From the NCBI GenBank assembly GCA_964434145.1, contig CAYSUG010000001.1, forward strand, positions 22,933-86,932: a stretch of DNA of 64,000 bases, in the 5' to 3' direction. The notes under the pieces were generated by a model. The model was not told the origin of the DNA. It ran no database searches and was given only the letters and a program-made list of their open reading frames with translations. The stretch comes from an uncultured Christensenella sp. GTDB lineage: Bacteria; Bacillota; Clostridia; Christensenellales; UBA1242. Of this stretch, positions 1 through 64,000 are shown piece by piece. The first letter of the stretch is position 1; every line of letters begins with the position of its first letter. A program made the translations under genes and the position numbers.

Positions 1-328
1 ATTGTGCATATCTTACAATATCAAAATGGTCTTCTTTTGTAAAAGTGTATTCCTCTTCAGATTCTTTAGGGTCGCATTTCATCATAACTTTTTGAAAATT
101 GTCATTTTCTGAAAAATTTTTCCAATATTCCATAATAAAACTGGCTTCATTAATGGCTTTGTCTCTTTTAAACTGGAAAAACAATGCAATTGCTCCAATA
201 ACTGCTGTTGCTACTGTTATAACTTCAAGCACTCTATTCCCTATATATTCATCAAAAAGTAATGTTAAAAACAAACTACCAATAAGTAAACAAATGGAAA
301 GAGTGGTTAAAACTTTATTTTTTTTCAT
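1..328 (-). CDS. hypothetical membrane-anchored protein, N-terminal part (gene runs off the left edge)
   Basis: Own minus-strand reading: ATG at 328-326 follows an AAAGGAA RBS. It translates MKKNKVLTTLSICLLIGSLFLTLLFDEYIGNRVLEVITVATAVIGAIALFFQFKRDK..., with two hydrophobic helices, and stays open to position 1. That is why it is absent from the ORF track. It replaces the antisense 99..335 ORF. Confidence 0.5.
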   Translation of the reverse strand, partial: MKKNKVLTTLSICLLIGSLFLTLLFDEYIGNRVLEVITVATAVIGAIALFFQFKRDKAINEASFIMEYWKNFSENDNFQKVMMKCDPKESEEEYTFTKEDHFDIVRYAQ

Positions 329-505
329 AGTATAATTTCCTTTTTACTTCTCACTTAGTATAGGTTAACAAAATATAATCAATTTTAAAAGCAATAAATA
401 CTATTTTAATGCACTATATTTTTTATACTAACATTATATCACCTTTAAATCTATTCTACAAATAAAAAAGGCAACTATAATTTATAGCCACCTTAACATC
501 TGTTA

Positions 506-1456
506 TTATTCAATCTCTGCTTGTTGCGGTTCTTTGACTGCTTTTAAATGTTGGATTTGTTCATATGATATTTGCATATCTACGTTATTATCTTTAAATA
601 TTTTAGAAATATCGTTATCTGCTAGAAGCTGTTCTCTAATATCTGCATACTTATGGTCGTAATAATTATCATAATGAGGTTCGTCATGACAGACATAACT
701 TATACTCCTATGTGGAGATATTGTTCGTGTAAAATATGTAATCAATTCTCCAATACTTGTATGCTCATAAGCCTTTACAACTAATTCTTTATTATCAATA
801 ATTTGCTCTGGTGACAAACCTTTTAATGCACCAAAACCACAACCTTCAATAGCAGCATCTACCAAAGTAACATAATCTACTCTTGTATTTGGTAAATTAT
901 TTAATATTTCTAAACCAAACGTCTGGACTTGCTGAACAAATTTTTCTGTCGAAATAGCATTAATTACTTCTTTTTTATCAGTTCCTTTAGATATACTATA
1001 GCCAGGAAAAACTTTGTCTAATACTGATACAATGTTCTTTTCTGGGAAAGTACTTATAAATTTTTCTACAAACTCAGGATTTTTAAATTCAGATTTTAAT
1101 TTACCATACTCAAAATAATCAAAAATATACTTATCAACTGAATCTTTCAATTTTAGATATTCTAACAAAAAATCTGTGTCCTTTTTTTTCTCATCATTAG
1201 GCACAAACATCTTGGTCAGCTCTGGATTTGCTCTATACAACGACATCATGTAACTATTGTCCGCCAATTGTTCTTCTGTTAAACGCAATATATACAGTCT
1301 GTCTGCATTATTATCATCTGATACAAAATTTATAATTGCGGAATTAACCTCTTCTGGCGAAGCATCTGGATTAACTCCTAGCGCCTTATAAAATCTATTT
1401 TTATCTTTTAATTTCGACTTTTTATCAAAAAAATTTTTTATAAAACTCATAACCAT
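506..1456 (-). CDS. hypothetical protein (no recognisable domain)
   Basis: 316-aa ORF with AAAGGA RBS. The N-terminus FYKALGVNPDASPEEV resembles J-domain helix I, but there is no HPD motif. Confidence 0.6.
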   Translation of the reverse strand: MVMSFIKNFFDKKSKLKDKNRFYKALGVNPDASPEEVNSAIINFVSDDNNADRLYILRLTEEQLADNSYMMSLYRANPELTKMFVPNDEKKKDTDFLLEYLKLKDSVDKYIFDYFEYGKLKSEFKNPEFVEKFISTFPEKNIVSVLDKVFPGYSISKGTDKKEVINAISTEKFVQQVQTFGLEILNNLPNTRVDYVTLVDAAIEGCGFGALKGLSPEQIIDNKELVVKAYEHTSIGELITYFTRTISPHRSISYVCHDEPHYDNYYDHKYADIREQLLADNDISKIFKDNNVDMQISYEQIQHLKAVKEPQQAEIE

Positions 1457-1651
1457 AATATCCTTTAAAGTTTTTAAAATAATACGCCAATATTATATAT
1501 CAGAATTTTAAAATGTCAAGACCTATTTTTAGTGACTTATTTCAGAATGATGAACTACAAAAAAATTGTGTATTGCATTATTATTTGTTTTATGATAACA
1601 TACTTATTAATACGAGATGCTAAAATACTATCATAATATGGAGAAATATAA

Positions 1652-2227
1652 ATGAATAATTTTGAAATAAGTATAAGAGACCTAATTGACTTTGAAGATG
1701 GTAAACATTTCAATGAGGATAAAATAAGAGCTGGAAAATATAAATTTATAAGAGATTTAGAAGACCAAAGTTTAGACATCCCAGTACATCTTACAGATGT
1801 TTATAATATAGCAGAAACAATCCACTTTCATTATTTCGATAGAGAATTATATGATAACGACAATTTTTGTGTTGGACTAACAAGTTTTGGTCGCCAACAA
1901 AACTGCACCCAAATAGACCCTTTTCTCTATGAAAAAGATATAGAATGGATACAATTCTTATTTTCTAGATATGGGGAAAAGTACGCTATAGCAAGTAGAC
2001 CATTAATCGAAGCTAAAATGAAACAAGCAAAAAACTACTTAAATCATATTAATTCTACTTTTGATACTTGTCACGAATACGACGAAAATGCATATAACTA
2101 CATATTTAGTAAGCAATATTATGAAAAAGAAATAAATAAATGCAACCATAAAATATCTATTTACTCTGAAATTTTATCAAGTATAGCCCAATCTTCAAAT
2201 CAAGAAGATGAAATGACAACTGTTTAG
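1652..2227 (+). CDS. hypothetical protein
   Basis: 191-aa ORF with a GGAGA RBS 7 nt upstream, followed by a hairpin terminator. No family recognised. Confidence 0.6.
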   Translation: MNNFEISIRDLIDFEDGKHFNEDKIRAGKYKFIRDLEDQSLDIPVHLTDVYNIAETIHFHYFDRELYDNDNFCVGLTSFGRQQNCTQIDPFLYEKDIEWIQFLFSRYGEKYAIASRPLIEAKMKQAKNYLNHINSTFDTCHEYDENAYNYIFSKQYYEKEINKCNHKISIYSEILSSIAQSSNQEDEMTTV

Positions 2228-2229
2228 TT

Positions 2230-2260
2230 AAAATCACCACTATATTGGTGATTTTTTATT
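2230..2260 (+). terminator. Rho-independent terminator
   Basis: AAATCACCA-n6-TGGTGATTT hairpin followed by a T-run. Confidence 0.7.
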
Positions 2261-2370
2261 TTAGAAAATTTTCATAGAGTTTATTGTTAATAAAAAAGCA
2301 GATAGCATATTGACAATTTGACAACCCATATTGTATAATCATGTTACAATTATATAGGAGTACCCATAGT

Positions 2371-3138
2371 ATGAACATCGTTAAAGCATTAGAGTCATTA
2401 GGAAAAAAAGTTAATAAATACAACACTTTAAGTAAGGAATATGCAGATTTAGAAGATAAGCATAGCAGCGAAGTAAAGAGAGTTAAAGTGATGTATAGTG
2501 CAAAAAAACGTGGAGAACTTGTTAGACACTTACTAGCCATGAAAAATATTGCCACAGAAGAAAAAGCGGCAATAGACAATATTCCTGAAAACAGCATTAA
2601 TTATGCTGAATTAAGAGATGCATACCAAGATGAAAAGTATTTCAGAAAAAAATTATTAGAAAATTTCATAATTGACCACAATTTAATGTGTCAATTACTA
2701 GAAAAGGAAACCAACTTGGCATGGACATTTAAAGAGATATGTGGTCGTCATCCATCTGATCCAGTATATAGATATGCTTATGCACATGGAATTGTTTTAG
2801 TTAATGAAAAAAAGCCAGAGTTCTATGTAGAAGGTAAAATATATTACAATGAATATCTGAAAAAATCCGAAAATATAATCCCATGCTGTTTAGGCTTAAC
2901 ATATCCACAAAGTTTTAGTGACGAATGTCAAATAGAGGCAAATAATTATAACTGGCTAGACTTTTATCTTCATAGTGTAGGTTTAGTGCCAGAATATGAG
3001 AATGAAGAAGAAACCAAAAAAGCTTTGCCAAAATGTGGAATATTTGAAGATGTTATAAAAGATGCGATAGCAAAACATATTCAATCTTTCTCACCTAGTA
3101 GCTTATCAGAAAATGATATAGAAGAACCTCAGGCGTAA
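2371..3138 (+). CDS. hypothetical protein
   Basis: The ORF opens at 2341. The ATG at 2371 (MNIVKALESLG...) has an AGGAG RBS about 10 nt upstream. No family recognised. Confidence 0.6.
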   Translation: MNIVKALESLGKKVNKYNTLSKEYADLEDKHSSEVKRVKVMYSAKKRGELVRHLLAMKNIATEEKAAIDNIPENSINYAELRDAYQDEKYFRKKLLENFIIDHNLMCQLLEKETNLAWTFKEICGRHPSDPVYRYAYAHGIVLVNEKKPEFYVEGKIYYNEYLKKSENIIPCCLGLTYPQSFSDECQIEANNYNWLDFYLHSVGLVPEYENEEETKKALPKCGIFEDVIKDAIAKHIQSFSPSSLSENDIEEPQA

Positions 3139-3230
3139 TATAAATACATATTACCAAAAGAAACAATTCGCACTTTGGGAGCGATGTCTAATTGGAGCGT
3201 ATGCGACAAATATAATTTGGCGACAGCCAC

Positions 3231-3327
3231 TATGTAATTTACTGAATATTATGCATAACGACTATCATCGCATTACATATCAACCTATGGTGGAATTACA
3301 TAACAACTTCGTTGTATTACATATCAA
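3231..3327. repeat. iteron-like array: three direct 12-mers ATTACATA(T/A)CAA plus one inverted copy
   Basis: Direct copies at 3272-3283, 3295-3306 and 3316-3327 (spacing 23 and 21 nt). An inverted core TATGTAAT sits at 3231-3238. Short hairpins lie between the copies. Confidence 0.5.
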
Positions 3328-3344
3328 TTTGACAAGCAAATTGA

Positions 3345-3383
3345 ATAAAAAAATCTCAAGTTAAACAACTCGAGATTTTTTTT
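3345..3383 (+). terminator. Rho-independent terminator
   Basis: AAAAATCTCAAGTT / AACTCGAGATTTTT hairpin with one mismatch, then a T-run. Confidence 0.7.
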
Positions 3384-3438
3384 GGTGCACCGTATGAAAA
3401 TAAACTTGAACCAGATTTTACAGAAATTATATAATAAT

Positions 3439-3476
3439 TAAAAAAATATTAGGAAGAAATAAACTTCCTAATATTT
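3439..3476 (-). terminator. Rho-independent terminator of the LRR lipoprotein gene
   Basis: AATATTAGGAAG-n7-CTTCCTAATATT hairpin with a T-run on the minus strand. Confidence 0.7.
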
Positions 3477-3484
3477 AAACACTT

Positions 3485-4924
3485 TTATTCTTCTATAGGT
3501 TCAAATTTGATTGTAATAGTTCCATCTAATAATTTAGTGTTAGACTCGTCGATATCTATAGATTCCCACTCTTCTTGAGTTCCTTTAAAGATAATTTCGG
3601 TTAATGAGTGTAAATTGCTTAATGCAGCCATTCCTATACTTGTCACACTATTTGGAATTGTTATTTTTTCAAGGTTCTCACAACTAGAAAATGCACGTTC
3701 TCCAATACTTAATACTCCATTAGACAATATTATACTTTCTAAATCCTTACAACAACTAAAAGCATACTCTCCAATATAATCAATATCTATCGCGATTATA
3801 TCACTATTTTTGCACGCAAGAATTAAAGTTTTTGTTTCTTTCTCTACTATTACATTATAGCAGATATCGTTACCAAATACCCCTTTTCTACAATCGGTAT
3901 ATATAGCATTTAATTGAGAGACTTCTATACTCTCCAAATTATAGCAGTTTTCAAAAGCATTACTCTTAATATCTACTACACTACTAGGTATATATATACT
4001 TTTCAAGCTTACACAATCTCTAAAAGCTAGATTACCAATTATTTCTACACTATTAGGAATATATATATTTACCAAACTACTACAATCGCTAAAGGCTGAA
4101 TTCCCAATTTCCTTCACAGTATTTGGAATATTTATACTTTTTAAAGATGTACATTGATAAAAGGCTCGATACCCAATTTTATTTATACCATAATTTAATT
4201 TTACACTTTCTAATGCAGTACAGAATTGAAAAGCAGAATCATATATTTCGGTTACCCTTGTTGGTAACTCAACACAATCCAATGTCTTATTTGTTAGTTC
4301 TTTGAATATAGTTCCTTCCAACACATAATCATCTGTCCATTTTGCATACAAGCATATAGTCTTGTTATCTTGAATATCTTCTGAACAAACACCATTGAAT
4401 ACTTCAGTATACGTCTCATCAGTATACCAATCTACAAATGAGTAACCAGACTTGGTCGGAATTGCTAAATCTAGCATATTAGAATTATCTAAATATTTAA
4501 CATTTGTATTTTCAACTGGATTAACACCACCATCAAGGTGATAACATAGATTTACAGCAATTTTATTTTCCTGTTTTACAGCAGAAACCTCTATCAGATT
4601 CTTCCATTCATCACTATTGTCTTCTGTTTTATATCTCCACTGAATATGTGTATCTGTTGTTTGGAATTCTACCTCTCTTCCATCCACACTAGGATTACCT
4701 GGATCACCTTTATAACCATCTCCAAGCAAAGTTTTCAACTCGTTAATACTAATAACATTATTCCACTCATCGCTACCTTCTACTTGCCATTGGAAGTAGT
4801 TGTCGGCAAATCTAACATTAATATCATCCTCCTTATCACAACCAACTAGTCCAAAGGGCATTGCAAGTGCGCAAAGTCCCATTGCTGTACCTGCTAAAAA
4901 TTTTTTTAATCTTCCTTTTTTCAT
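3485..4924 (-). CDS. surface lipoprotein with BspA-type leucine-rich repeats and a Listeria-Bacteroides (Flg_new-like) repeat
   Basis: Signal peptide with lipobox LVGC. Repeated ~23-aa units (IPNSV..IG..AF..C.SL) are typical of LRR_5/BspA. The segment GYSFVDWYTDETYTEVF is typical of the Flg_new repeat. Confidence 0.75.
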   Translation of the reverse strand: MKKGRLKKFLAGTAMGLCALAMPFGLVGCDKEDDINVRFADNYFQWQVEGSDEWNNVISINELKTLLGDGYKGDPGNPSVDGREVEFQTTDTHIQWRYKTEDNSDEWKNLIEVSAVKQENKIAVNLCYHLDGGVNPVENTNVKYLDNSNMLDLAIPTKSGYSFVDWYTDETYTEVFNGVCSEDIQDNKTICLYAKWTDDYVLEGTIFKELTNKTLDCVELPTRVTEIYDSAFQFCTALESVKLNYGINKIGYRAFYQCTSLKSINIPNTVKEIGNSAFSDCSSLVNIYIPNSVEIIGNLAFRDCVSLKSIYIPSSVVDIKSNAFENCYNLESIEVSQLNAIYTDCRKGVFGNDICYNVIVEKETKTLILACKNSDIIAIDIDYIGEYAFSCCKDLESIILSNGVLSIGERAFSSCENLEKITIPNSVTSIGMAALSNLHSLTEIIFKGTQEEWESIDIDESNTKLLDGTITIKFEPIEE

Positions 4925-5018
4925 TATTTTCTCCTTTTTGTATAAATTTTATTTTATTATACATCATAAAGTGATGTATGTCAACTATTTTACATCAGTT
5001 TGTGGTATATAATAACAT

Positions 5019-5231
5019 ATGGATATTGCAAAAATTGTTGGAGATAATATTAAAACAGCAAGAAAAATAAAAGGACTAACTCAAAGCGAGGTAGCCAAAG
5101 TTTTTCGAATGACACAACAACAATATAGCAGATTTGAAAATGGTGTTTTTGAACTTAATTATCAGCAAATATGCGATATTTGCAAATTTTTAGATACAAC
5201 ACCAAATGAATTATTTAATTTTGATATATAA
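5019..5231 (+). CDS. XRE-family helix-turn-helix transcriptional regulator
   Basis: 70 aa. The segment IKTARKIKGLTQSEVAKVFRMTQQQYSRFENG is a canonical HTH_3 pattern. Confidence 0.8.
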   Translation: MDIAKIVGDNIKTARKIKGLTQSEVAKVFRMTQQQYSRFENGVFELNYQQICDICKFLDTTPNELFNFDI

Positions 5232-5349
5232 AATTAAATAAAATCCGATATATTACAAAAAATACTTTTAACTCTTCACTTTTAGTTTTTCACTTAAAAA
5301 ATAATCCAAACTTTTAGTGAAGATTGAAAAATAAAAGTTAAAAGTACAA

Positions 5350-5389
5350 ACAAAACAATCCCTATCTTACGATAAGGATTGTTTTTGTT
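5350..5389. terminator. bidirectional Rho-independent terminator
   Basis: ACAATCCCTATC-TTAC-GATAAGGATTGT hairpin flanked by an A-run and a T-run. On the minus strand it directly follows the tRNA-Leu 3'-end fragment. Confidence 0.7.
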
Positions 5390-5407
5390 TGGTGCGGATG
5401 AGAGGAC
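5390..5407 (-). repeat. 18-nt direct repeat of the tRNA-Leu 3' end (att-like fragment)
   Basis: TGGTGCGGATGAGAGGAC at 5390-5407 is identical to 5575-5592, the 3' end of the intact tRNA-Leu. Confidence 0.85.
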
Positions 5408-5540
5408 AGTGTCTATTGGACAATAGTCCAATACTTCGGGTGGCACGCAGTGACGGGGTCCCGAATACAAGTGAAAGGCTTTTGCGTATACGCAAAAAGA
5501 GTTCTTAGTAATAAGAACTCTTACTCATCTAGCCAAAACG
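5408..5540 (-). ncRNA. unclassified conserved multi-hairpin module, copy 1 (tRNA-linked)
   Basis: It shares the blocks TGCGTATACGCA (5483-5494) and GAATACAAGTGAAA (5463-5476) with copy 2 at 59.9 kb. The stems flanking these blocks differ in sequence between copies but keep their pairing. Strand and RNA status are inferred. Confidence 0.4.
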
Positions 5541-5566
5541 AAAAAAGCCTCGGCATTGCCGGGCTT
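5541..5566 (-). terminator. terminator directly after tRNA-Leu
   Basis: Minus-strand GCCCGGCAATGCCGAGGC hairpin followed by TTTTTT. Confidence 0.6.
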
Positions 5567-5574
5567 ACTGTCGT

Positions 5575-5657
5575 TGGTGCGGATGAGAGGACTTGAACCC
5601 CCACTCTTTCGAACTAGATCCTAAGTCTAGCGCGTCTGCCAATTTCGCCACATCCGC
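5575..5657 (-). tRNA. tRNA-Leu (anticodon TAG)
   Basis: Hand-folded: GCGGATG acceptor, long variable arm, anticodon loop CTTAGGA, GGTTCAAGTCC T-arm, encoded CCA. Confidence 0.9.
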
Positions 5658-5816: not shown

Positions 5817-5905
5817 ATATTCGGTCTATCCTGACAACAATGACATTATACTACAGCAAAACTGTATTGTCAATAGAACTCAATTACTTTTTCAAAAAAA
5901 TAGTG

Positions 5906-6199: not shown

Positions 6200-6229
6200 A
6201 TAATAACAAATCTACTCCCCCATTGTCAA
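6200..6229 (-). promoter_or_regulatory. putative sigma-A promoter of the tRNA operon
   Basis: Minus strand reads TTGACA-18 nt-TATTAT, about 30 nt upstream of tRNA-Gly. Confidence 0.45.
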
Positions 6230-25512: not shown

Positions 25513-28131
25513 TTATTCACAAGAATAATACATCGTTGTCCAACCTACGCCGCTTTTGAAATTTCTTGCATTTGCTGCTGGATCAGACAAATCTACATCC
25601 TTGACAAATTTAGAATATTCAACATCGCTATATTGCTTCCACCCAGCAGTATTCTCAAATACTAACTCTGTCAAATAATTCATACCACCAAACGCATTAC
25701 GACCAATTCGCTTCAAACTAGCTGGCAGAGTTAACGAGATAAGGCTGGTATTTAAATTGATACAAAATCCATACTTTTCTATCTCTTCCAATTCAGAATT
25801 AGGTGCAAAAGTAATGGAGCGTGTATAACTATTATCATAGAATGCGTATTCACCAATTGTTTTTAATGAGACTGGCAGTACTAGATCTTGAGGTGTTATC
25901 TTGCCTCGGAAGGCATTTTTTTCCACCCTAGTAATACCTTCGACAATATTTGATTGCGGGCATCCTGCTATCAGAATATTGTCAGCTATTGTAACTATGC
26001 TATTACTACCCTCTGGGCAATAATATATAGTATTGGCAGAATCAACTGTTATAGATGACATATTAGTACAATAATTAGTAATTCCATATCCAATCGATGT
26101 GACTGTAGAAGGAATAGTCAAACTCACTAGAGTTGTTGAAGAAAAACAAGAATCACTAATAGTCACCAATGAACCATTATCTAGATCTAACTCTGTTATT
26201 GGCAAGCCGGTAAAAGCCTCATTATGTATGTATACAACGCCAGCACCCACAACCGTATTCTTGCATGCCGCAATTAACCAATTTTCTTGATTTGTTTTTT
26301 GATTAATAACCGCATTACAAGGAACCTCTACCTTGGTTTCTCCTTCATAATAATACGAGTTGGTAGAATAATATTTGTTGCTACTAGATATAATAATTTC
26401 CTCCAAATCATCACATCCTTGCGTAATCGATGTTCCAATTATCCTAGTCTTTGCTGGAATAGTCAGACTAGTTATCTTTGCATTATAAAACGCCCAGGAT
26501 GAGATATAAACCATACTCTCTGGAAGAACTAATTTAGGATCTTCTGGTTCATAGCCAGAACAAGCATAATTAGCTATCTTTTGCAAGCCTTCATACAAAA
26601 TGGTGCCAGAACAAGCAGCCACTAAAGAATAATAGCCATCAGAACTGTATGTAAATATTCCATTACATTCCTCTCCTGTCAGATGATTCTTACTAGTGTA
26701 TTTAGCATTGTTTTCATCAACGAACAGTGATTCTATATTGCTACAACCGACAAAGGCAGAACTGTTAATAGAATTAACACTTGCTGGGATATAAATGGAT
26801 TCAAGACTAGTACACCCATCGAATACATTACCACCTATTGTTGTCAATCCGGTACCCAAATCAATCGATTGCAGATTAGTACAATAATTAAATGCATAGC
26901 TATTGATCACTTCTACACTATCTGGCAGACTAATATGTTGTATTGCAGTACTAGCGAATACACTAGAACCAATAGTAGTAAGTTGAGAACCCTCTGCAAT
27001 AATTACATTTGTTACACAAAATCCACTTAGAGCATAAGAACCAAGAGTATGAATATTCTTGCCAATATATACTGTTGCTGTATTCTTACAATCAGATAGA
27101 AGGTTATTGCCTGACGACTCTGCATCGGAGATGTATGAGATAGGTTTCTTGCCATTAGTCCCGTTATCGTAATAGTCTGGAATAACCACCTCTGTAATAG
27201 TAGGATCTGCTACTGGCACATTCTTGACATAATAGCAGTCTGCCACCTTGTCATAAACAATATTTTCCGGAATATTACATGCCTTGTATACTGGATATAG
27301 CGCTACAGACTCTGCTGCCTTGTAAGGGAAGGTTATAGTCTCTGTAGCATTCTCGCCCACTCCCCAACCTACGAAGACCTCTGTATCACGAACTGGATAT
27401 ATCTTTGGTGCCTCTATAGCAGTCGCAGCTGGCAGTGTAGATGTAATGTATGCAGCATCTGCCTGCAGTCCACTATCATTGGCCATTGCGTTATATGTAA
27501 TGGTGACAGTAGTTATATCCTTTCGGGTCAACGACCAGTTGAAATTACCCGCGATATTGGCATCTGCCAGTATGTTATTAACATCTGCAACAATATAGAC
27601 ATACTTCACATTATATGTGTAGGCGTCACTCATAAGAATCTGTCTAGTATAACTATCTTCTAGAGTTAACGCTGTTCCATCTTGCAGCGTCATAGCGTCA
27701 TAGTCTACAACTGGCTCGTCTGAATATGCATATGATAGAGTGAAGTTATCCGTAATCGTCAACTCATTGGTGTGATCGATATATGCATTAATACTATGGC
27801 TAAGGTTAGTAAATATGTATTCGAACACGATTCTTGAATCTGATACTGCAAGCGTCGTGTCGCTATTAGGCTGAGACAGATTTCCTTCCATAATCTCTGC
27901 ATTTAGCTCTAGATATGTAGAGTCACCGTTTTTAAAAGGATATGTTGTATTATTGTCACGCAAGTTCGCCTCCATCTTAACAAACACATCTGTTGCCTCA
28001 TATTTCATCTTCACTTGCGTATTAGCCGACTGGTTGGACGCAACTAGCACAAGAATTAATCCTGTAATTACGCCAACAACGGCTATGCAGAGTGCAGCTA
28101 TTATTATAACAAGCTTTTTGTTAGAACTCAT
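25513..28131 (-). CDS. large cell-surface protein with BspA-type leucine-rich repeats
   Basis: N-terminal signal anchor (MSSNKKLVIIIAALCIAVVGVITGLILVLV). The C-terminal ~550 aa consist of LRR_5-like units (IP.SV..IG..AF..C..L). Start assigned at 28131 after an AGGAGA RBS. Confidence 0.75.
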   Translation of the reverse strand: MSSNKKLVIIIAALCIAVVGVITGLILVLVASNQSANTQVKMKYEATDVFVKMEANLRDNNTTYPFKNGDSTYLELNAEIMEGNLSQPNSDTTLAVSDSRIVFEYIFTNLSHSINAYIDHTNELTITDNFTLSYAYSDEPVVDYDAMTLQDGTALTLEDSYTRQILMSDAYTYNVKYVYIVADVNNILADANIAGNFNWSLTRKDITTVTITYNAMANDSGLQADAAYITSTLPAATAIEAPKIYPVRDTEVFVGWGVGENATETITFPYKAAESVALYPVYKACNIPENIVYDKVADCYYVKNVPVADPTITEVVIPDYYDNGTNGKKPISYISDAESSGNNLLSDCKNTATVYIGKNIHTLGSYALSGFCVTNVIIAEGSQLTTIGSSVFASTAIQHISLPDSVEVINSYAFNYCTNLQSIDLGTGLTTIGGNVFDGCTSLESIYIPASVNSINSSAFVGCSNIESLFVDENNAKYTSKNHLTGEECNGIFTYSSDGYYSLVAACSGTILYEGLQKIANYACSGYEPEDPKLVLPESMVYISSWAFYNAKITSLTIPAKTRIIGTSITQGCDDLEEIIISSSNKYYSTNSYYYEGETKVEVPCNAVINQKTNQENWLIAACKNTVVGAGVVYIHNEAFTGLPITELDLDNGSLVTISDSCFSSTTLVSLTIPSTVTSIGYGITNYCTNMSSITVDSANTIYYCPEGSNSIVTIADNILIAGCPQSNIVEGITRVEKNAFRGKITPQDLVLPVSLKTIGEYAFYDNSYTRSITFAPNSELEEIEKYGFCINLNTSLISLTLPASLKRIGRNAFGGMNYLTELVFENTAGWKQYSDVEYSKFVKDVDLSDPAANARNFKSGVGWTTMYYSCE

Positions 28132-28267
28132 TACATCTATTCTCCTATAATAATATTGTGCCACAATAAGACACAATTTAACATACATATTTTACATTTT
28201 CTAATACTATTTAGCAAACAAATACAGCAATATTAGAAATTTTGCAAACCTACCTACAACAAAGGCA

Positions 28268-58584: not shown

Positions 58585-59295
58585 ATGATCGGATTTGTTA
58601 TTGCTATGGAAAAAGAATGCAATGCCTTCTTAAATAAACTAAAAACAACTAAAGAATATGACTTCGCTGGTAAAAAATTCGTTAAGAGCGAGTTAGGTAG
58701 TAGCGAAATAATTGTAGGAATTGCAGGCATAGGCAAAGTTAATTCTGCAATGACAACCCAATTAATGATAGACAAATTTGCCCCAGAACTAATAATAAAT
58801 TTTGGCTTCGCTGGAGGCAAAGAAGGAAGTGGGTTAAAAGCTGGAGACATTGTGTTACTGGACAAAGTCTGTCAATACGATTTTGATTTAAGCGAAGTAG
58901 ATGATGTAAATATTGGATATATGCAAGACTATGACACCACATACTACAACACAGATTACTCGCTTTATAACGGAAATGCTTTTAAAATACGCACCGGTGC
59001 CACTGGCGACAGATTCACCAGCCAGAAATATTTTCTAGATATTATTCGGCAACTAAATGCACAAGTAGTAGATATGGAAGCTTGTGCAATTGCACAAGTA
59101 GTAGATATGGAAGCTTGTGCAATTGCACAAGTATGTCAAGCAAATGACATACCTGTTATAAGTATTAAATTAATCTCTGATGTAGATGGAATGGATGTAA
59201 ATATCTTTGAACAATACAAAGGCAACAGCAATGCAATAAACGATAAATTTGTACTCGCAATAACAGACCTAATGGACAACATAATAAACAATTAA
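58585..59295 (+). CDS. mtnN: 5'-methylthioadenosine/S-adenosylhomocysteine nucleosidase carrying an in-frame 33-bp tandem duplication
   Basis: Motifs GIGKVNSA, FGFAGG, GDRF and VDMEACAIAQV are present. The last motif is duplicated. Confidence 0.85.
   Translation: MIGFVIAMEKECNAFLNKLKTTKEYDFAGKKFVKSELGSSEIIVGIAGIGKVNSAMTTQLMIDKFAPELIINFGFAGGKEGSGLKAGDIVLLDKVCQYDFDLSEVDDVNIGYMQDYDTTYYNTDYSLYNGNAFKIRTGATGDRFTSQKYFLDIIRQLNAQVVDMEACAIAQVVDMEACAIAQVCQANDIPVISIKLISDVDGMDVNIFEQYKGNSNAINDKFVLAITDLMDNIINN
59065..59130 (+). repeat. perfect 33-bp tandem duplication inside mtnN
   Basis: GTAGTAGATATGGAAGCTTGTGCAATTGCACAA occurs at 59065-59097 and again at 59098-59130. Confidence 0.95.
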
Positions 59296-59381: not shown

Positions 59382-59720
59382 TTAGTCTTCATCTCCTAAT
59401 TCAGCCGTACCTGTTAAATCATAATGGAAATGTTCTTCCTCAACTCTACCCCTTGTAATAGCTGATTTTGCATTTTTTAATGGTTCTATTGCTGCAGCTA
59501 CAACTGTCTTCTCTTGTAGTATCATACTTTTTGCAAAATCGCCATTCCTACTTCCTTTGTATTTTTCAACATCGTGAACTTCTCCGTTGTTTAATTTATC
59601 TAAATATATTTGAAGTTGGCTTATTGTGTTGGCTAGAGTTTCCACAATGTCTGGTTTTTTATCATTATTCTGATGCTTATCTTGAGATTTTCTAATCTCT
59701 ATATATCTTTTAACGTCCAT
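59382..59720 (-). CDS. hypothetical protein (112 aa)
   Basis: AAGGAGAAAT RBS. Charged and helical. No family recognised. Confidence 0.55.
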   Translation of the reverse strand: MDVKRYIEIRKSQDKHQNNDKKPDIVETLANTISQLQIYLDKLNNGEVHDVEKYKGSRNGDFAKSMILQEKTVVAAAIEPLKNAKSAITRGRVEEEHFHYDLTGTAELGDED

Positions 59721-59789
59721 GCATATTTCTCCTTAAATTTAATTAGTGAACTAAGTATATCATATTAAAATACATATTGCAATACCTAA

Positions 59790-59826
59790 AATAAAAAACT
59801 CAGTCAAACTATGTGTTCAACTGAGG
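59790..59826 (-). terminator. Rho-independent terminator closing the module copy 2 unit
   Basis: CTCAGT-n15-ACTGAG hairpin followed by TTTTTT on the minus strand. Confidence 0.6.
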
Positions 59827-59863
59827 ACCATTTTGCAGAAATGACAGAAAAAAATACAAACAA

Positions 59864-59975
59864 ACAGATGTGAGGCAATTTTCTGCACGGCAAGTTTACT
59901 TGCGGGAGTGCAGAATACAAGTGAAACTCCCCTGCGTATACGCAACGACAGCATGGAATGCTGTCTGTCATCTGT
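59864..59975 (-). ncRNA. unclassified conserved multi-hairpin module, copy 2 (tRNA-linked)
   Basis: Contains TGCGTATACGCA (59933-59944) and GAATACAAGTGAAA (59913-59926), identical to copy 1. Hairpins at 59947-59965 and 59881-59915 differ in sequence from copy 1 but occupy the same positions. Confidence 0.4.
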
Positions 59976-59980
59976 ACCAC

Positions 59981-60008
59981 AAAAAAATAAACTCTGCGAA
60001 CGCAGAGC
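59981..60008 (-). terminator. terminator directly after the tRNA/tmRNA 3'-end fragment
   Basis: CTCTGC-GTTC-GCAGAG hairpin followed by TTTATTTTTTT on the minus strand. Confidence 0.7.
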
Positions 60009-60018
60009 TTATTGGATG

Positions 60019-60040
60019 TGGTGGAGATGACGGGATTTTA
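60019..60040 (-). repeat. orphan 3'-end fragment of a tRNA or tmRNA (att-like junction)
   Basis: The minus strand reads TAAAATCCCGTCATCTCCACCA: half a T-loop, the 3' acceptor strand, A73 and CCA. The upstream DNA has no matching 5' half. Confidence 0.6.
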
Positions 60041-60187: not shown

Positions 60188-60724
60188 TTATTTTTTGTAT
60201 TCTTTACATTTCTTCTCCAAAAGTTTAAAGTCCACAACACAATCTAAATATTTACTATGTTCCGATACTTTATATTTTCCTATCTTTTGATTATAAATAA
60301 TATTTGCTTTTCTTACTATTTCCTTTCTATTTTTAGTAATAAAATCTAATTCTTTTATCACAAGAGTTTTGTAATTTAAATCTTTTTCATTGTTTGGATT
60401 TACTTTAGTTAATGCAATATCATTTATAGGTATCATATTACCCAAAAGTATTTTTCCCTTCATTTCATCTATATTCTTATCATTCTTTACTACTATTCTT
60501 GTTAAAAATATTGGGTCCTTTCGAATTGAGCCATCAGCATTAAAGTCCTTTTGCTTAGGACTAGATAATGGAGCAAAAAATTTACAATCATTTACTTGTA
60601 TTACTGCACCAATATACTTTCTAGCATGTTTTCTTTTTCCAATTTTGTTATCACTTACATGAGAATCAAATTTTCTCAAATATTGAATATAGTCATCATC
60701 AACATTATATAAATATATTTTCAT
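60188..60724 (-). CDS. type III toxin-antitoxin system toxin, ToxN/AbiQ-family endoribonuclease
   Basis: 178 aa from MKIYLYNVDDDYIQYLRKFDSHV. It matches my recollection of AbiQ/ToxN: F..V...YI.YL..FD..V, YIG.V......FFAPLSSPK, and a C-terminal C.VDF..LEKK. Confidence 0.8.
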   Translation of the reverse strand: MKIYLYNVDDDYIQYLRKFDSHVSDNKIGKRKHARKYIGAVIQVNDCKFFAPLSSPKQKDFNADGSIRKDPIFLTRIVVKNDKNIDEMKGKILLGNMIPINDIALTKVNPNNEKDLNYKTLVIKELDFITKNRKEIVRKANIIYNQKIGKYKVSEHSKYLDCVVDFKLLEKKCKEYKK

Positions 60725-60740
60725 AAAATTCTTCCTTTGA

Positions 60741-60776
60741 ATAAAAATGAGCAAGGCGACTTTTGCCCTGCTCATT
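60741..60776 (-). terminator. terminator between antitoxin repeats and toxin gene
   Basis: AATGAGCAGGGC-AAAAGT-CGCCTTGCTCATT hairpin followed by TTTTAT on the minus strand. Confidence 0.75.
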
Positions 60777-60780
60777 ACTT

Positions 60781-60875
60781 CCTTCTGAGGAGAGGAATTC
60801 CACCTTTTACAGTTTCCCACTAAGGTAGGGTTCTCCAATCATACAGTTTCCCACTAAGGTAGGGTTCTCCGCCAA
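60781..60875 (-). ncRNA. ToxI/antiQ-like antitoxin RNA: 34-nt tandem repeats (2 perfect cores plus a degenerate partial unit)
   Basis: TACAGTTTCCCACTAAGGTAGGGTTCTCC occurs at 60808-60836 and 60842-60870, a 34-nt period. A degenerate partial unit lies at 60781-60807. The position relative to promoter, terminator and toxin matches type III TA loci. Confidence 0.75.
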
Positions 60876-60895
60876 TATCACTATTGGTTACAAGT

Positions 60896-60924
60896 ATGAT
60901 ACATTTTTTTTACTTTAAAGTCAA
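60896..60924 (-). promoter_or_regulatory. promoter of the type III TA operon
   Basis: The minus strand reads TTGACT (60924-60919), 17 nt, TATCAT (60901-60896). A 14-bp palindrome AGTTTTGCAAAACT (60926-60939) abuts the -35. Confidence 0.55.
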
Positions 60925-61015: not shown

Positions 61016-64000
61016 TTAATACCCACTCATCTCAAACAACTTTTCTTTCTGACTTTTTGTTAGTTTTAGTCTATTAATATAAGACTTAACCTGTGTTTCG
61101 CCATACTTGTTTGTGTAACCAAGATACCCCATAATCATATACTTCTGTACTGCTGTAAGACCTAGACTATTGATGTATGATTGTATCTTTGCTTTTCTTG
61201 ATCCTGATATAGCTACACCTTTTTTATCTGTATCTGCTGTGTATATCTGTGCCTGAGATATAGCCATAGCCAATTGCTCAATTGGAATAGCCTCAGCAAA
61301 TAGAATTGTCTTGCTCTCCAAATCTTCTCCCAGCATATCCTCAATAGCAAGATTGTAGTAATAATTATAGATAAAAGTCATAGCCTTCGCTTTTGCTTCA
61401 TCATCAATCTTAGCAAAAGCTTTCAAGTTTACCATCTTCTTTACAGATTCGTTGGCTTGAGAATATATCTTTGTGAATTGTTTATGTTGTTTATCTGTTA
61501 AGGTATATTCCACCCCTTCATAAGTAATAGATTTATTTACTACTCTAGGTAGCACATCATAACCCTGCTCAATCAAATCTCTAGTCACTTCCATGACTTT
61601 ATCATCTTTGATTTTTCCTGTCCTACTATCAAACATAATATTTATTATTCTGTCAGCATATTCTTCATCTCCATTAGCAAGTGCTTTTTCTACTTTATCC
61701 AAATATGTTTGAGTACTCTTTGTCTTAAATAATGCTTCGTATTCTTCTTTTGTTGCAGGAGATATTTTTCCTATAATACCTTTTGTGTAACTCTCTAAAT
61801 TTTGTAAAGGTATACCAAATAGTTTGCTGGCATTTAGTATAGATTTTCTAGCAGAAGCTCTTAATTTAGTATCATCTTGATATCCACCATTAGCAAAAGT
61901 GTCGATTGACTCAACTGTATCTTTAACAATATTAAAAGTATTACTTAATGAAGTGTAAGCCATATTTGTTGGCTCATAACCAAGCATTAAGTTTGCTAAA
62001 TCGCCACCAAATGGAAGTAAGCCAACCAGATTAGCCATTGCTTCATTCCTAGCAACTTCGCTCCACTCCTCATCATCATCTTTACCTTTTAGCCATTTGA
62101 AAGCCATTGCAATCGCTAGTAACATTACCTGATTAAGAATAAATGCACTCTCAGTTTTTGCTAATCCTTTTTTAGAAGATGGTAATTCTTTTTGTGCATA
62201 TTGTGCTAATTCTAAATTGTCACACTTGCTCACTTTTTTTAATATATGATGCTTTCTTATTGCACTGCATTTTCTTCCTGCTAATTGTATACCATCTCCC
62301 CCAAACATTCTAAGAAATTTTATAAATTCATTATCGCTTCGCATCCACTCACTTCGACCTAATGCATCACTTGTCTGTTGAGTTGTAAATACAACCTCTG
62401 TCAATCTCTTACCAGCTTCAACTTTGTTTGCATCTGTGCCAAATTCTAATCCTTTTGTCTCTGCAACCTCATATTGAGCAGCAAACCATAATGATTGAAT
62501 AACATTACTATCCATCCAGGATATAGGTGTAGTTGTTAGTTTATTTAAGCCATCAGTAGCCTTTGCAATTACTTTGTGAGATCTTCCACCAATTTCTTTT
62601 CCAATTTGCCTTATATCTTGTACATCTACACTACTTCCAACTAAATTTCTCTCCCACATAAGAGGTGCATATTTAGCCATCTCTATTTTTTCTTTTTCTC
62701 CAAAGAAATGCTTCATTCCTTTAACAATGTACTTAGGATTGAATTCTGTTTGTGCAGATGCAAGAGATAATGTCTGAGTTAATAATACTTTAGGATTTAA
62801 GCCTAATGCAGAATTGGCTGTAGCCCATCTAATTCTACTCATTAGTTTACCAAAAAACTTATCTACTGATTTAAGGTTTTTAGTATTAAGTCCTTGTACA
62901 TCTAGCCACAATTTATCCATATATCCTTTAAATCCAGAATCTATTTTGCCTGCAGCACTATGCATATTTATACCAGAACCATTTTCTAACACAACTTTTC
63001 TATTCATTATCTTGTTGTATGCATTTAATGGCAACGCATATCCTACATATAAGGACATTTTTCTTATATGTTCTGCAAGAATATTATCTACACCATCAAT
63101 AACAATCATATTGCTAGAATTAGGTTTTACAGTTTTATTAAATCCAAAATTTAAAACAGATTGGTTTATATTACCTTTATCTGTTGTCTCCTGAAAAAGT
63201 TCATCGCTAGATACTTCTAATGGGAAGTAATCTCTATCTTCTACATTAGAGACTCCATACAAAGCAATATCTACTTCTTGTTTTGCTTTTCGAGAATTCT
63301 CATTAAAGAAAGTTTTAACTAAATCTATATATTCTCTATCTGCCTGTGTAAATTGTTTTTCAATATTGCTTAACATTTCTTCGGTAACTTTAATTTCTAC
63401 ACCTTTATCAAGTGCTTTTTTCATCTTTCCACGAGTTGAAAATTTATTATCCAACAACTTAACAATGCCCTCATCACCATCAACACCAAATATATGACTT
63501 CTACCCTGAGGTCTTAGTGATGTTAAGTATAGAGATAATGCTTGTCTTTTATGAAGTGTAATATCTTCATATCCATTATTAATAACCATTTGTTCTTGTA
63601 GAACATTGTTATAATTCTTATTTCTTTTATAGAAGTCATCAAATAACATATTGGCTTCCATGACAAACTTGGCTCTTTTAGAATCTCCATTAACCATATC
63701 TCTATATATTTGCATCATTACAGAGTTTTCTCTGTACAATCCCATTTCAGCCATTCTATCTTTAGGATTAATAAATATATGCTTAATTCCTTTAATAATA
63801 TAGTTAAAAAACCTAACAAATATATTTGAGTCCGGACTCTTTAAGAATGGTTCAGCCTCAAGAGTTTCCTTAACACCTTGTTCAGCGATTTTATCTATCT
63901 CAACCTTTTCGCCATTAAAGCTAACTAAATTATAATTTTGTAAAACATGCATAAAGTTCCTAAGAACATTAGAGATATCAAGAATTTCTTCCGTTGTAAA
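61016..64000 (-). CDS. very large phage/mobile-element protein (partial; open beyond the window edge)
   Basis: The 978-aa track ORF stays open upstream of its first Met as far as position 64000. Composition and C-terminal segments (e.g. SGSRKAKIQSYINSLGLTAVQKYMIMGYLGY) resemble large virion/polyvalent proteins. The family was not verified. Confidence 0.5.
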   Translation of the reverse strand, partial: FTTEEILDISNVLRNFMHVLQNYNLVSFNGEKVEIDKIAEQGVKETLEAEPFLKSPDSNIFVRFFNYIIKGIKHIFINPKDRMAEMGLYRENSVMMQIYRDMVNGDSKRAKFVMEANMLFDDFYKRNKNYNNVLQEQMVINNGYEDITLHKRQALSLYLTSLRPQGRSHIFGVDGDEGIVKLLDNKFSTRGKMKKALDKGVEIKVTEEMLSNIEKQFTQADREYIDLVKTFFNENSRKAKQEVDIALYGVSNVEDRDYFPLEVSSDELFQETTDKGNINQSVLNFGFNKTVKPNSSNMIVIDGVDNILAEHIRKMSLYVGYALPLNAYNKIMNRKVVLENGSGINMHSAAGKIDSGFKGYMDKLWLDVQGLNTKNLKSVDKFFGKLMSRIRWATANSALGLNPKVLLTQTLSLASAQTEFNPKYIVKGMKHFFGEKEKIEMAKYAPLMWERNLVGSSVDVQDIRQIGKEIGGRSHKVIAKATDGLNKLTTTPISWMDSNVIQSLWFAAQYEVAETKGLEFGTDANKVEAGKRLTEVVFTTQQTSDALGRSEWMRSDNEFIKFLRMFGGDGIQLAGRKCSAIRKHHILKKVSKCDNLELAQYAQKELPSSKKGLAKTESAFILNQVMLLAIAMAFKWLKGKDDDEEWSEVARNEAMANLVGLLPFGGDLANLMLGYEPTNMAYTSLSNTFNIVKDTVESIDTFANGGYQDDTKLRASARKSILNASKLFGIPLQNLESYTKGIIGKISPATKEEYEALFKTKSTQTYLDKVEKALANGDEEYADRIINIMFDSRTGKIKDDKVMEVTRDLIEQGYDVLPRVVNKSITYEGVEYTLTDKQHKQFTKIYSQANESVKKMVNLKAFAKIDDEAKAKAMTFIYNYYYNLAIEDMLGEDLESKTILFAEAIPIEQLAMAISQAQIYTADTDKKGVAISGSRKAKIQSYINSLGLTAVQKYMIMGYLGYTNKYGETQVKSYINRLKLTKSQKEKLFEMSGY

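Follow-up and report, generated by a model that had tools for sequence, protein, structure and literature searches.

Gene-less units bounded by tRNA 3' ends at tRNA-Leu and tRNA-Ser loci of a narrow clade of gut Clostridia

Behind the tRNA-Leu(UAG) gene of the window (the whole 64-kb stretch of DNA that was analysed) lies a unit of ~185 bp, one repeat counted (5408-5592), which is bounded by two copies of the tRNA 3' end and encodes nothing. This unit, hereafter W1, belongs to a family of which eight copies were found, two of them within the window, with a unit size of ~150-190 bp. On balance, it is somewhat probable that 5408-5592 represents a miniature integrative element without genes and with flanking att sites, or else the smallest form in which one survives, at a tRNA integration hot spot. 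In such a model, site-specific recombination would have placed the ~185-bp element into the 3' end of tRNA-Leu(UAG). The element would supply a replacement tRNA 3' end and a fresh terminator beside the tRNA (attL side), and the original 3' end and the native terminator would have been pushed downstream (attR side). Because the units encode nothing, their movement would need a recombinase supplied in trans, the candidate being probably the tRNA-targeting tyrosine integrase of a prophage or an ICE. The recombinase, the mobilisation in trans and the origin of the family are inferred; the units may have arisen small or through recurrent decay of larger elements. W1 itself is old and mosaic, and probably no longer mobile.

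The insertion behind tRNA-Leu(UAG)

Six tRNA genes were identified with ARAGORN in the region, all on the minus strand and in the order Gly-Arg-His-Gln-Lys-Leu(UAG), from 6168 down to 5575. The insertion target, tRNA-Leu(UAG), is the last of this cluster (5575-5657, minus strand; Rfam tRNA, 56 bits). Two near-consensus sigma-70 promoters are seen on the minus strand, at 5845-5873 and 6200-6229, and one of them, located between tRNA-His and tRNA-Gln, is a perfect TTGACA-17-TATAAT. Hence, the cluster would form two transcription units, both stopping at the terminator of the insert. On the other side, the tRNA site is adjoined by the gene of a large surface-type protein (3485-4924, minus strand) with BspA-type leucine-rich repeats and a Listeria-Bacteroides repeat domain according to Pfam, which stands amid orphan genes without family assignment (506-3138). 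A second large surface-type protein (25513-28188, minus strand) resembles it by eye.

An earlier note on this DNA had pointed to an 18-nt perfect repeat of the tRNA-Leu 3' end. The corresponding 18-mer, TGGTGCGGATGAGAGGAC, has exactly two matches in the 64-kb window, even if three mismatches are allowed, and is not a random occurrence (mean of 0.01 matches in shuffled controls, two or more matches in 0 of 100 shuffles). By BLAST, the identity is in fact 19 nt long (5389-5407 and 5574-5592) and reads GTCCTCTCATCCGCACCA+A on the tRNA strand. It covers the last two bases of the T-loop, the 3' strand of the T-stem, the 3' strand of the acceptor stem, the discriminator base, CCA and one more base. 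Both copies were located by pattern search and BLAST on the minus strand: copy 1, which is attL-like, is the tRNA 3' end GTCCTCTCATCCGCACCA plus one base (5574-5592), and copy 2, which is attR-like, would be the displaced original tRNA 3' end (5389-5407).

The 167 bp between the two copies (5408-5574) form a non-coding insert containing a terminator for the tRNA and a conserved module, as had been noted, and a diverged second copy of the module is present at ~59830-59979. The first part of the insert is terminator A, an intrinsic terminator made of AGCCCGGCAATGCCGAGGC and T6 (5541-5565, minus strand). It is followed on the same strand by IR, a weak inverted copy of the tRNA 3' end (TGG..GATGAG, 5524-5535), which is predicted to pair with the direct repeat as P1, thereby closing the fold. 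P2, a 10-bp hairpin supported by folding and by hairpin alignment, occupies 5498-5521 (minus strand), and P3 is the perfect palindrome TTGCGTATACGCAA (5482-5495), of which GCGTATACGC is common to three other copies. The 14-nt conserved core TTTCACTTGTATTC (5463-5476, minus strand) is identical in the second window copy (W2) and in two copies from other genomes (L002 and L003B). It overlaps by 3 nt (TTC, 5463-5465) the P4 hairpin (5435-5465, minus strand), a "type 1" hairpin with TTCGGG...CCCGAA around ACCCCGTCA..TGCCA that is also found in L010 and L003A. A last hairpin, P5 (TGGACTATTGTCCA, 5417-5430, minus strand), is kept in L010 via a compensatory change, TGAAC..GTTCA. Past copy 2 stands terminator B (5347-5390, with a 15-pair terminator at 5352-5385), the native terminator of the tRNA cluster, with T-runs on both strands. 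W1 folds more stably than its shuffled versions, with z = -8.8 if the terminators are included and z = -5.1 for the body alone. The sole ORF of the insert, a 58-codon TTG frame, was judged spurious. No promoter-like site was found within the unit, and between terminator A and IR there is too little room for one; nor was any integrase or other mobility ORF found in the insert or in neighbouring genes.

Orthologous loci of relatives were retrieved via homologues of the neighbouring YfcE-like gene, and the protein identities given here refer to the YfcE-like protein. In a more distant relative (L020, GCA_964434265.1; 47% identity), the six-tRNA cluster is present beside YfcE, and tRNA-Leu(UAG) is joined directly to AACAAAATAAATCCTTCAAGAGAAGGATTTTTTTTTGTTTGTA and a T-rich flank, homologous to terminator B of the window and its flank. 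Thus, the set made of terminator A, module and repeat is an insertion in the window, and terminator B is the native terminator, which bears out the earlier impression that the second terminator is the original one. Comparison of the sequences therefore identifies W1 as an insertion at the 3' end of tRNA-Leu(UAG). The attL/element/attR geometry also holds as it had been proposed, the tRNA-adjacent terminator belonging to the insert.

In a closer relative (L010/L011; 72% identity), the orthologous site holds a related unit with a perfect repeat of 20-22 nt. In another (L014; 76% identity), terminator A itself and the first bases of the unit remain, and most of the rest is deleted, up to the promoter of the downstream gene; L002, L003 and L010 have analogous terminators. 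The presence/absence comparison of 5408-5592 that had been suggested thus gave an empty site in L020, and strain-level polymorphism was not seen: exact-protein look-ups returned only identical arrays or short contigs. Indeed, L010 and L011 are the same, and L035 and L036, which come from two samples of the SIG400 species, do not differ across the 760-nt tRNA-Ser(GGA) interval that carries the array described below. As a separate feature of L020, the native tRNA-Leu terminator sequence is duplicated ~240 bp downstream, around an apparent small-ORF tail (5075-5375, 5590-5631), and the contig terminates in a (GCAA)n run.

A family at tRNA-Leu and tRNA-Ser genes

A pattern scan of one genome per species led to two further loci, both in the related MAG Clostridiales bacterium SIG400, and reading of the loci together with an nhmmer search revealed additional units. 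The family is known from about eight copies in a few metagenome-derived genomes, and its host range is a narrow clade of gut Clostridia. In L002, tRNA-Leu(CAG) is followed by a terminator, a module and a 21-nt repeat. In L010/L011, tRNA-Leu(UAG) is followed by a terminator, a module and the perfect repeat mentioned above. L003 carries units at two tRNA-Ser genes, one of them on the minus strand, where tRNA-Ser(CGA) precedes a terminator, a module and a 17-nt repeat. The other L003 target, tRNA-Ser(GGA), heads an array consisting of a terminator, module A, a repeat, a terminator, module B, a repeat, a terminator and a truncated module. Finally, a decayed variant (L033) lies upstream of the orthologue of window gene 59382-59720, and the diverged W2 lies behind a tRNA fragment of the window.

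Wherever the far end of a unit can be read, the direct repeat reproduces 17-23 nt of the local tRNA 3' terminus, from the T-loop through CCA plus 1-3 nt; the exceptions are W2 and L033, both decayed. The four named targets all code for tRNA-Leu or tRNA-Ser, and each either closes its transcription unit or is the sole gene in it. The genes around the loci examined are housekeeping genes. No integrase or other mobility gene was found near any family locus, and no ORF or promoter in or near the units; W1 and the units of L002, L003 and L010 stand alone, without an adjacent integrated element. The tRNA-Ser(GGA) array comprises two full units and a truncated third, including two units of one lineage, and its order fits repeated integration at a regenerated tRNA end. 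In the same array, the terminator that follows the tRNA recurs identically behind the last direct repeat. A nucleotidyltransferase gene of SIG400 has unit-bearing tRNA-Ser genes on both sides (L003 6594-7110, 5135-5405); relatives of the tRNA-Ser neighbour gene show other synteny, without a tRNA at that place.

The units are also mosaic. The 3' halves of W1 and of the L010 unit (P4, P5 and the stretch before the repeat) are about 90% identical, with the compensatory change in P5, whereas their 5' halves (terminator, P2 and P3) are unrelated. The 5' half of W1 bears the GCGTATACGC palindrome and the core typical of "type 2" units; therefore, halves can apparently be swapped at the common TGTATTC core. 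In "type 2" units, CTGCACCAC directly precedes the repeat regardless of the local tRNA, and in sequence this ending resembles a relic of an end of Leu(CAG) type. When the spacers of the tRNA cluster are aligned, those of the window organism and L010 are, as judged by eye, roughly 75-80% identical. Given such divergence, the perfect repeats seen at both sites may be due to conservation, to conversion against the tRNA or to fresh insertions that renewed them. The loss in L014 and the exchange of halves between W1 and L010 indicate turnover, which counts for a mobile element. Likewise, the several tRNA targets, the arrays and the half-swapping together fit the behaviour of integrative elements.

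It could also be proposed that W1 is a one-off scar, i.e. that a larger island or prophage targeting tRNA-Leu lost its interior and left its two att-proximal ends. CIMEs and microCIMEs have been described as decayed derivatives of ICEs and IMEs in the account cited below (PMC7563491, in the passages used here), the two-half mosaic of W1 is as expected with separable left and right arms, and orphan genes, together with an XRE regulator lacking a Pfam assignment, are found to the left of the site (1-5231). However, eight units at no fewer than five tRNA sites (>=5) share the same part order and a similar length, on which random deletions would not converge, and two units of one lineage stand in tandem in L003. 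Moreover, no larger element with these ends appeared in exact-motif scans or in phage/plasmid BLAST. We consider such a scar rather unlikely.

W2 as a whole occupies ~59830-60010 (minus strand). Its terminator (59981-60010), IR (59967-59979), P2 (59947-59965) and P3 (59933-59944) are followed by the core (59913-59926), P4 (59881-59915), a tail (59848-59880) and a decayed direct repeat (59830-59847). The repeat has decayed mainly by C-to-T changes and the fold is the weakest of the copies. A terminator that is conserved in L033 comes after it (59788-59826, minus strand). On the minus strand, W2 is preceded by a 978-residue protein, a toxIN locus and the tRNA 3'-end fragment AAATCCCGTCATCTCCACCA (60019-60038, minus strand), which marks the end of a phage-like island; W2, beginning with its terminator and module, is distal to this island. 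The 978-residue ORF, the toxIN locus and the tRNA fragment point to a prophage or island running off the right end of the window, its tRNA and any integrase being off-window. The order at W2 is the one expected if the island entered an off-window tRNA and displaced an older mini-unit downstream.

The 978-residue ORF (61016-63952, minus strand) has no Pfam match; among the PHROGs, it matches three families, which consist of large phage proteins whose function is unknown (best E = 3e-35). The type III toxin-antitoxin locus (toxIN; 60188-60920, minus strand) is complete and has a promoter. It consists of two 28-nt ToxI-like repeats, GGAGAACCCTACCTTAGTGGGAAACTGT, at 60843-60870 and 60809-60836 (period 34), a terminator (60743-60776) and toxN (probable start 60724, stop 60188; Pfam ToxN_toxin, E = 3e-36). 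A functional link between toxIN and W2 was rejected, as toxIN has its own ToxI repeats and terminator and the tRNA fragment separates it from W2; we treat toxIN as cargo of a different island. On the far side of W2, a perfect 33-bp tandem repeat (59058-59133; 2.3 copies, 100% identical) lies inside ORF 58585-59295, which looks like an MTA/SAH nucleosidase. This repeat duplicates AQVVDMEACAI in frame and seems to be of recent origin.

A common fold closed by the tRNA end

All units follow one order: their own intrinsic terminator, IR, P2 and P3, a J/core segment, P4 with an inner hairpin, and the direct repeat, P5 being present additionally in "type 1" units. IR copies the 3' end of the local tRNA imperfectly and in inverted orientation, and J/core is partly complementary to the T-loop region. 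Separate minimum-free-energy folds of six copies agree in that IR(+J) pairs with the direct repeat to form a closing helix, inside which P2, P3 and P4 are located (z-scores from -2.9 to -5.9). RNAalifold, run on a MAFFT alignment, recovers the same helix with two covarying positions. The complementarity of IR to the cognate tRNA end exceeds that of shuffles in five of the seven copies (p = 0.001-0.04; Fisher combined 3e-6), and is weak in W1 (p about 0.27) and in the Ser(CGA) unit. A match of 8-10 nt between J and the complement of the T-loop is seen in L010, L003A and the Ser(CGA) unit. The idea that the whole module is a degenerate antisense tRNA was rejected, since its global similarity to a reverse-complemented tRNA is not significant (z <= 2.6); thus, only the IR and J segments would be tRNA-derived.

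In a hairpin-anchored alignment of seven copies (A3), four hairpins comprising 30 pairs are 98% paired, a percentage that is partly by construction since the alignment was built on hairpins. Both-sided changes occur in 24 of the 30 pairs, and such values were reached by none of 500 shuffles. At each homologous position, all seven copies have a hairpin, the stems being unrelated in sequence. One-sided changes are absent and none of the 160 paired cells is a G-U pair, which favours DNA palindromes over an RNA under structural selection. Indeed, the perfect Watson-Crick palindromes P2-P4 fit DNA hairpins or palindromes better than a structurally selected RNA.

These observations bear on the possibility of a functional RNA, derived from the 3' trailer by read-through of the tRNA operon, whose tail would copy the tRNA 3' end and be held in a helix by IR. 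The predicted structure is strong, the covariation of the four hairpins is complete, the unit is oriented like the tRNA operon, which is highly expressed and has consensus promoters, and it is kept with a perfect repeat at the orthologous site of the window organism and L010. But a strong terminator lies directly upstream of IR, leaving no room for a promoter, and terminator B bars entry from the other side. Together with the lack of G-U pairs and of any Rfam family, and with a unit that is deleted in L014, decayed in W2 and absent in L020, this makes such an RNA very unlikely. An independent small RNA gene is also unlikely, as there is no promoter-like site, a terminator stands directly upstream and no Rfam match was obtained (E <= 1 to 5).

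The same anatomy would suit an element acting as a folded single strand. There, IR and J would pair with the direct copy and rebuild the tRNA 3' end as an imperfect hairpin stem, a step that we regard as unlikely. A recombinase would then exchange this stem with the chromosomal tRNA gene, the element being the hairpin plus a terminator; this proposal, made by analogy, is likewise doubtful. By the same analogy, the units might be an undescribed minimal kind of mobile DNA, gene-less and ~150-190 nt long, integrating as folded single strands behind tRNA-Leu and tRNA-Ser genes, which also appears improbable. Such an element could re-tailor both copies of the tRNA end on changing target. The common closing helix with its covariation, the significant IR complementarity, the J matches and the avoidance of G-U pairs, which suits DNA hairpins, all count for it, and the tandem arrays look like cassette arrays. 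However, no unit is linked to a recombinase, IR is weak in two copies, nothing indicates a source for a ~185-nt single strand, and this intermediate is deduced from anatomy only. The geometry could also be a by-product of palindrome formation around a terminator.

The favoured miniature integrative element has its own difficulties. A plain integrase model does not explain the inverted copy of the local tRNA end nor the hairpins conserved in structure. Also, a double-stranded circle of 185 bp would be hard to form, and the lack, in the scans made, of an integrase-bearing relative and of strain-level polymorphism, as well as the count of only about eight copies, speak against it. Among the three options raised in the earlier note, a miniature non-autonomous element nevertheless fits best; the remnant of a single island leaves the convergent architecture unexplained and a functional RNA is disfavoured.

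Parent elements and related systems

Pattern scans of viral contigs, genomes and metagenomes, together with BLAST against phage and plasmid records, found no larger or integrase-bearing element with the module; the collection scans relied on exact motifs, which distant parent elements could escape. The module on larger integrase-bearing islands, for which the earlier note had proposed a search, was thus found neither by exact-motif scans nor by phage/plasmid BLAST. Phage and plasmid records gave no BLAST match to the units themselves. Viral contigs gave no family match, and nine matches in one pattern scan look like chance in GC-rich coding DNA. In one IMG/VR contig (L029, 900-960), GGACCCGTCAGTCGGTTGCCACCCGAGGTAT resembles the type 1 P4 hairpin, by chance or as a distant relative, and lies inside a non-coding, apparently structured stretch of ~700 nt. 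The matches of the JGI metagenome scan were discarded as five copies of one unrelated soil sequence, and a genome-scan match in a Saccharibacteria MAG (L004) as apparent chance. Permissive Rfam searches (E <= 1 to 5) of the window region and of L002, L003 and L010 returned tRNAs and noise only.

By analogy of size, content and geometry, the closest published kind to W1 is the microCIME of streptococci. According to the passages of Lao et al. (2020, Genes 11:999, PMC7563491) used here, microCIMEs are gene-less, att-flanked and 130-220 bp long. They adjoin ICEs or IMEs in tandem where a target gene ends (3' side) and rely on the recombinase of another element, and in their accretions the most decayed unit is furthest from the target gene (PMC7563491). 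The published targets are protein genes (rpmG, rpsI, fda and rplL) beside identifiable ICEs or IMEs, and the units are seen there as decay products (PMC7563491). Like the microCIMEs of these passages, W1 is gene-less, with repeats equal to the target 3' end and 167 bp between them, and its family forms tandem accretions; W2, decayed and beyond a phage-like island, recalls the decayed unit furthest from the target. In contrast, the present units have tRNA-Leu and tRNA-Ser genes as their targets and mostly stand alone, and a parent element was not found. Whereas microCIMEs are recognised by ends that match those of a full-length ICE or IME, exact-motif scans and phage/plasmid BLAST gave no such element here. 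The family also has a multi-hairpin architecture and an inverted copy of the local target, neither of which is mentioned in those passages of the microCIME account (PMC7563491).

Other systems share some of these features. With islands and prophages that enter tRNA genes by means of tyrosine integrases, the units share a repeat extending from the T-loop to CCA, a restored tRNA end, a terminator supplied by the element and reuse of the site, but W1 totals ~185 bp and has neither integrase nor cargo. An integrase-bearing tRNA genomic island was accordingly rejected, as no integrase ORF is present in the insert or its neighbours. Integron attC sites and the attP(+) of CTX phage also have a spaced imperfect inverted repeat, a stem mimicking the double-stranded target and arrays beside the target. 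However, the likeness is anatomical only: the family has no link to IntI or Xer and neither the R'/R'' (GTTRRRY) nor the dif consensus. An integron cassette was set aside, the inverted repeat having the sequence of the tRNA end and not the attC consensus, with no integrase nearby. Like MITEs and REPINs, the units are short multi-copy sequences, non-coding and rich in hairpins, that would rely on a protein provided in trans. Unlike them, they have no terminal inverted repeats, are found at tRNA 3' ends only, have a low copy number and are flanked by a 17-23-nt repeat that is the tRNA end. A MITE was rejected since the ends of the unit (CGACAGTAAGCC... / ...CCAATAGACACT) do not form inverted repeats and the flanking repeat is of variable length (17-23 nt). 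Finally, the plus strand carries an 18-nt complement of tRNA-Leu as a retroelement primer-binding site would, but there is no RT, LTR or ORF.

Gene-less, att-flanked mini-elements are nearly invisible to island and prophage finders, and yet they mark and sustain integration hot spots at tRNA genes. To the microCIME picture, the present family adds tRNA targets as well as a conserved folded architecture, in which the sequence of the local tRNA is used to rebuild the closing stem. If the units are only debris, their value lies in annotation, where duplicated tRNA ends of this kind should not be labelled as pseudo-tRNAs or small RNA genes. If the architecture is a recognition feature of a recombinase, the units would offer a very small and easily tested substrate for recombination at tRNA sites, and would give a handle on how integrative elements switch tRNA targets.
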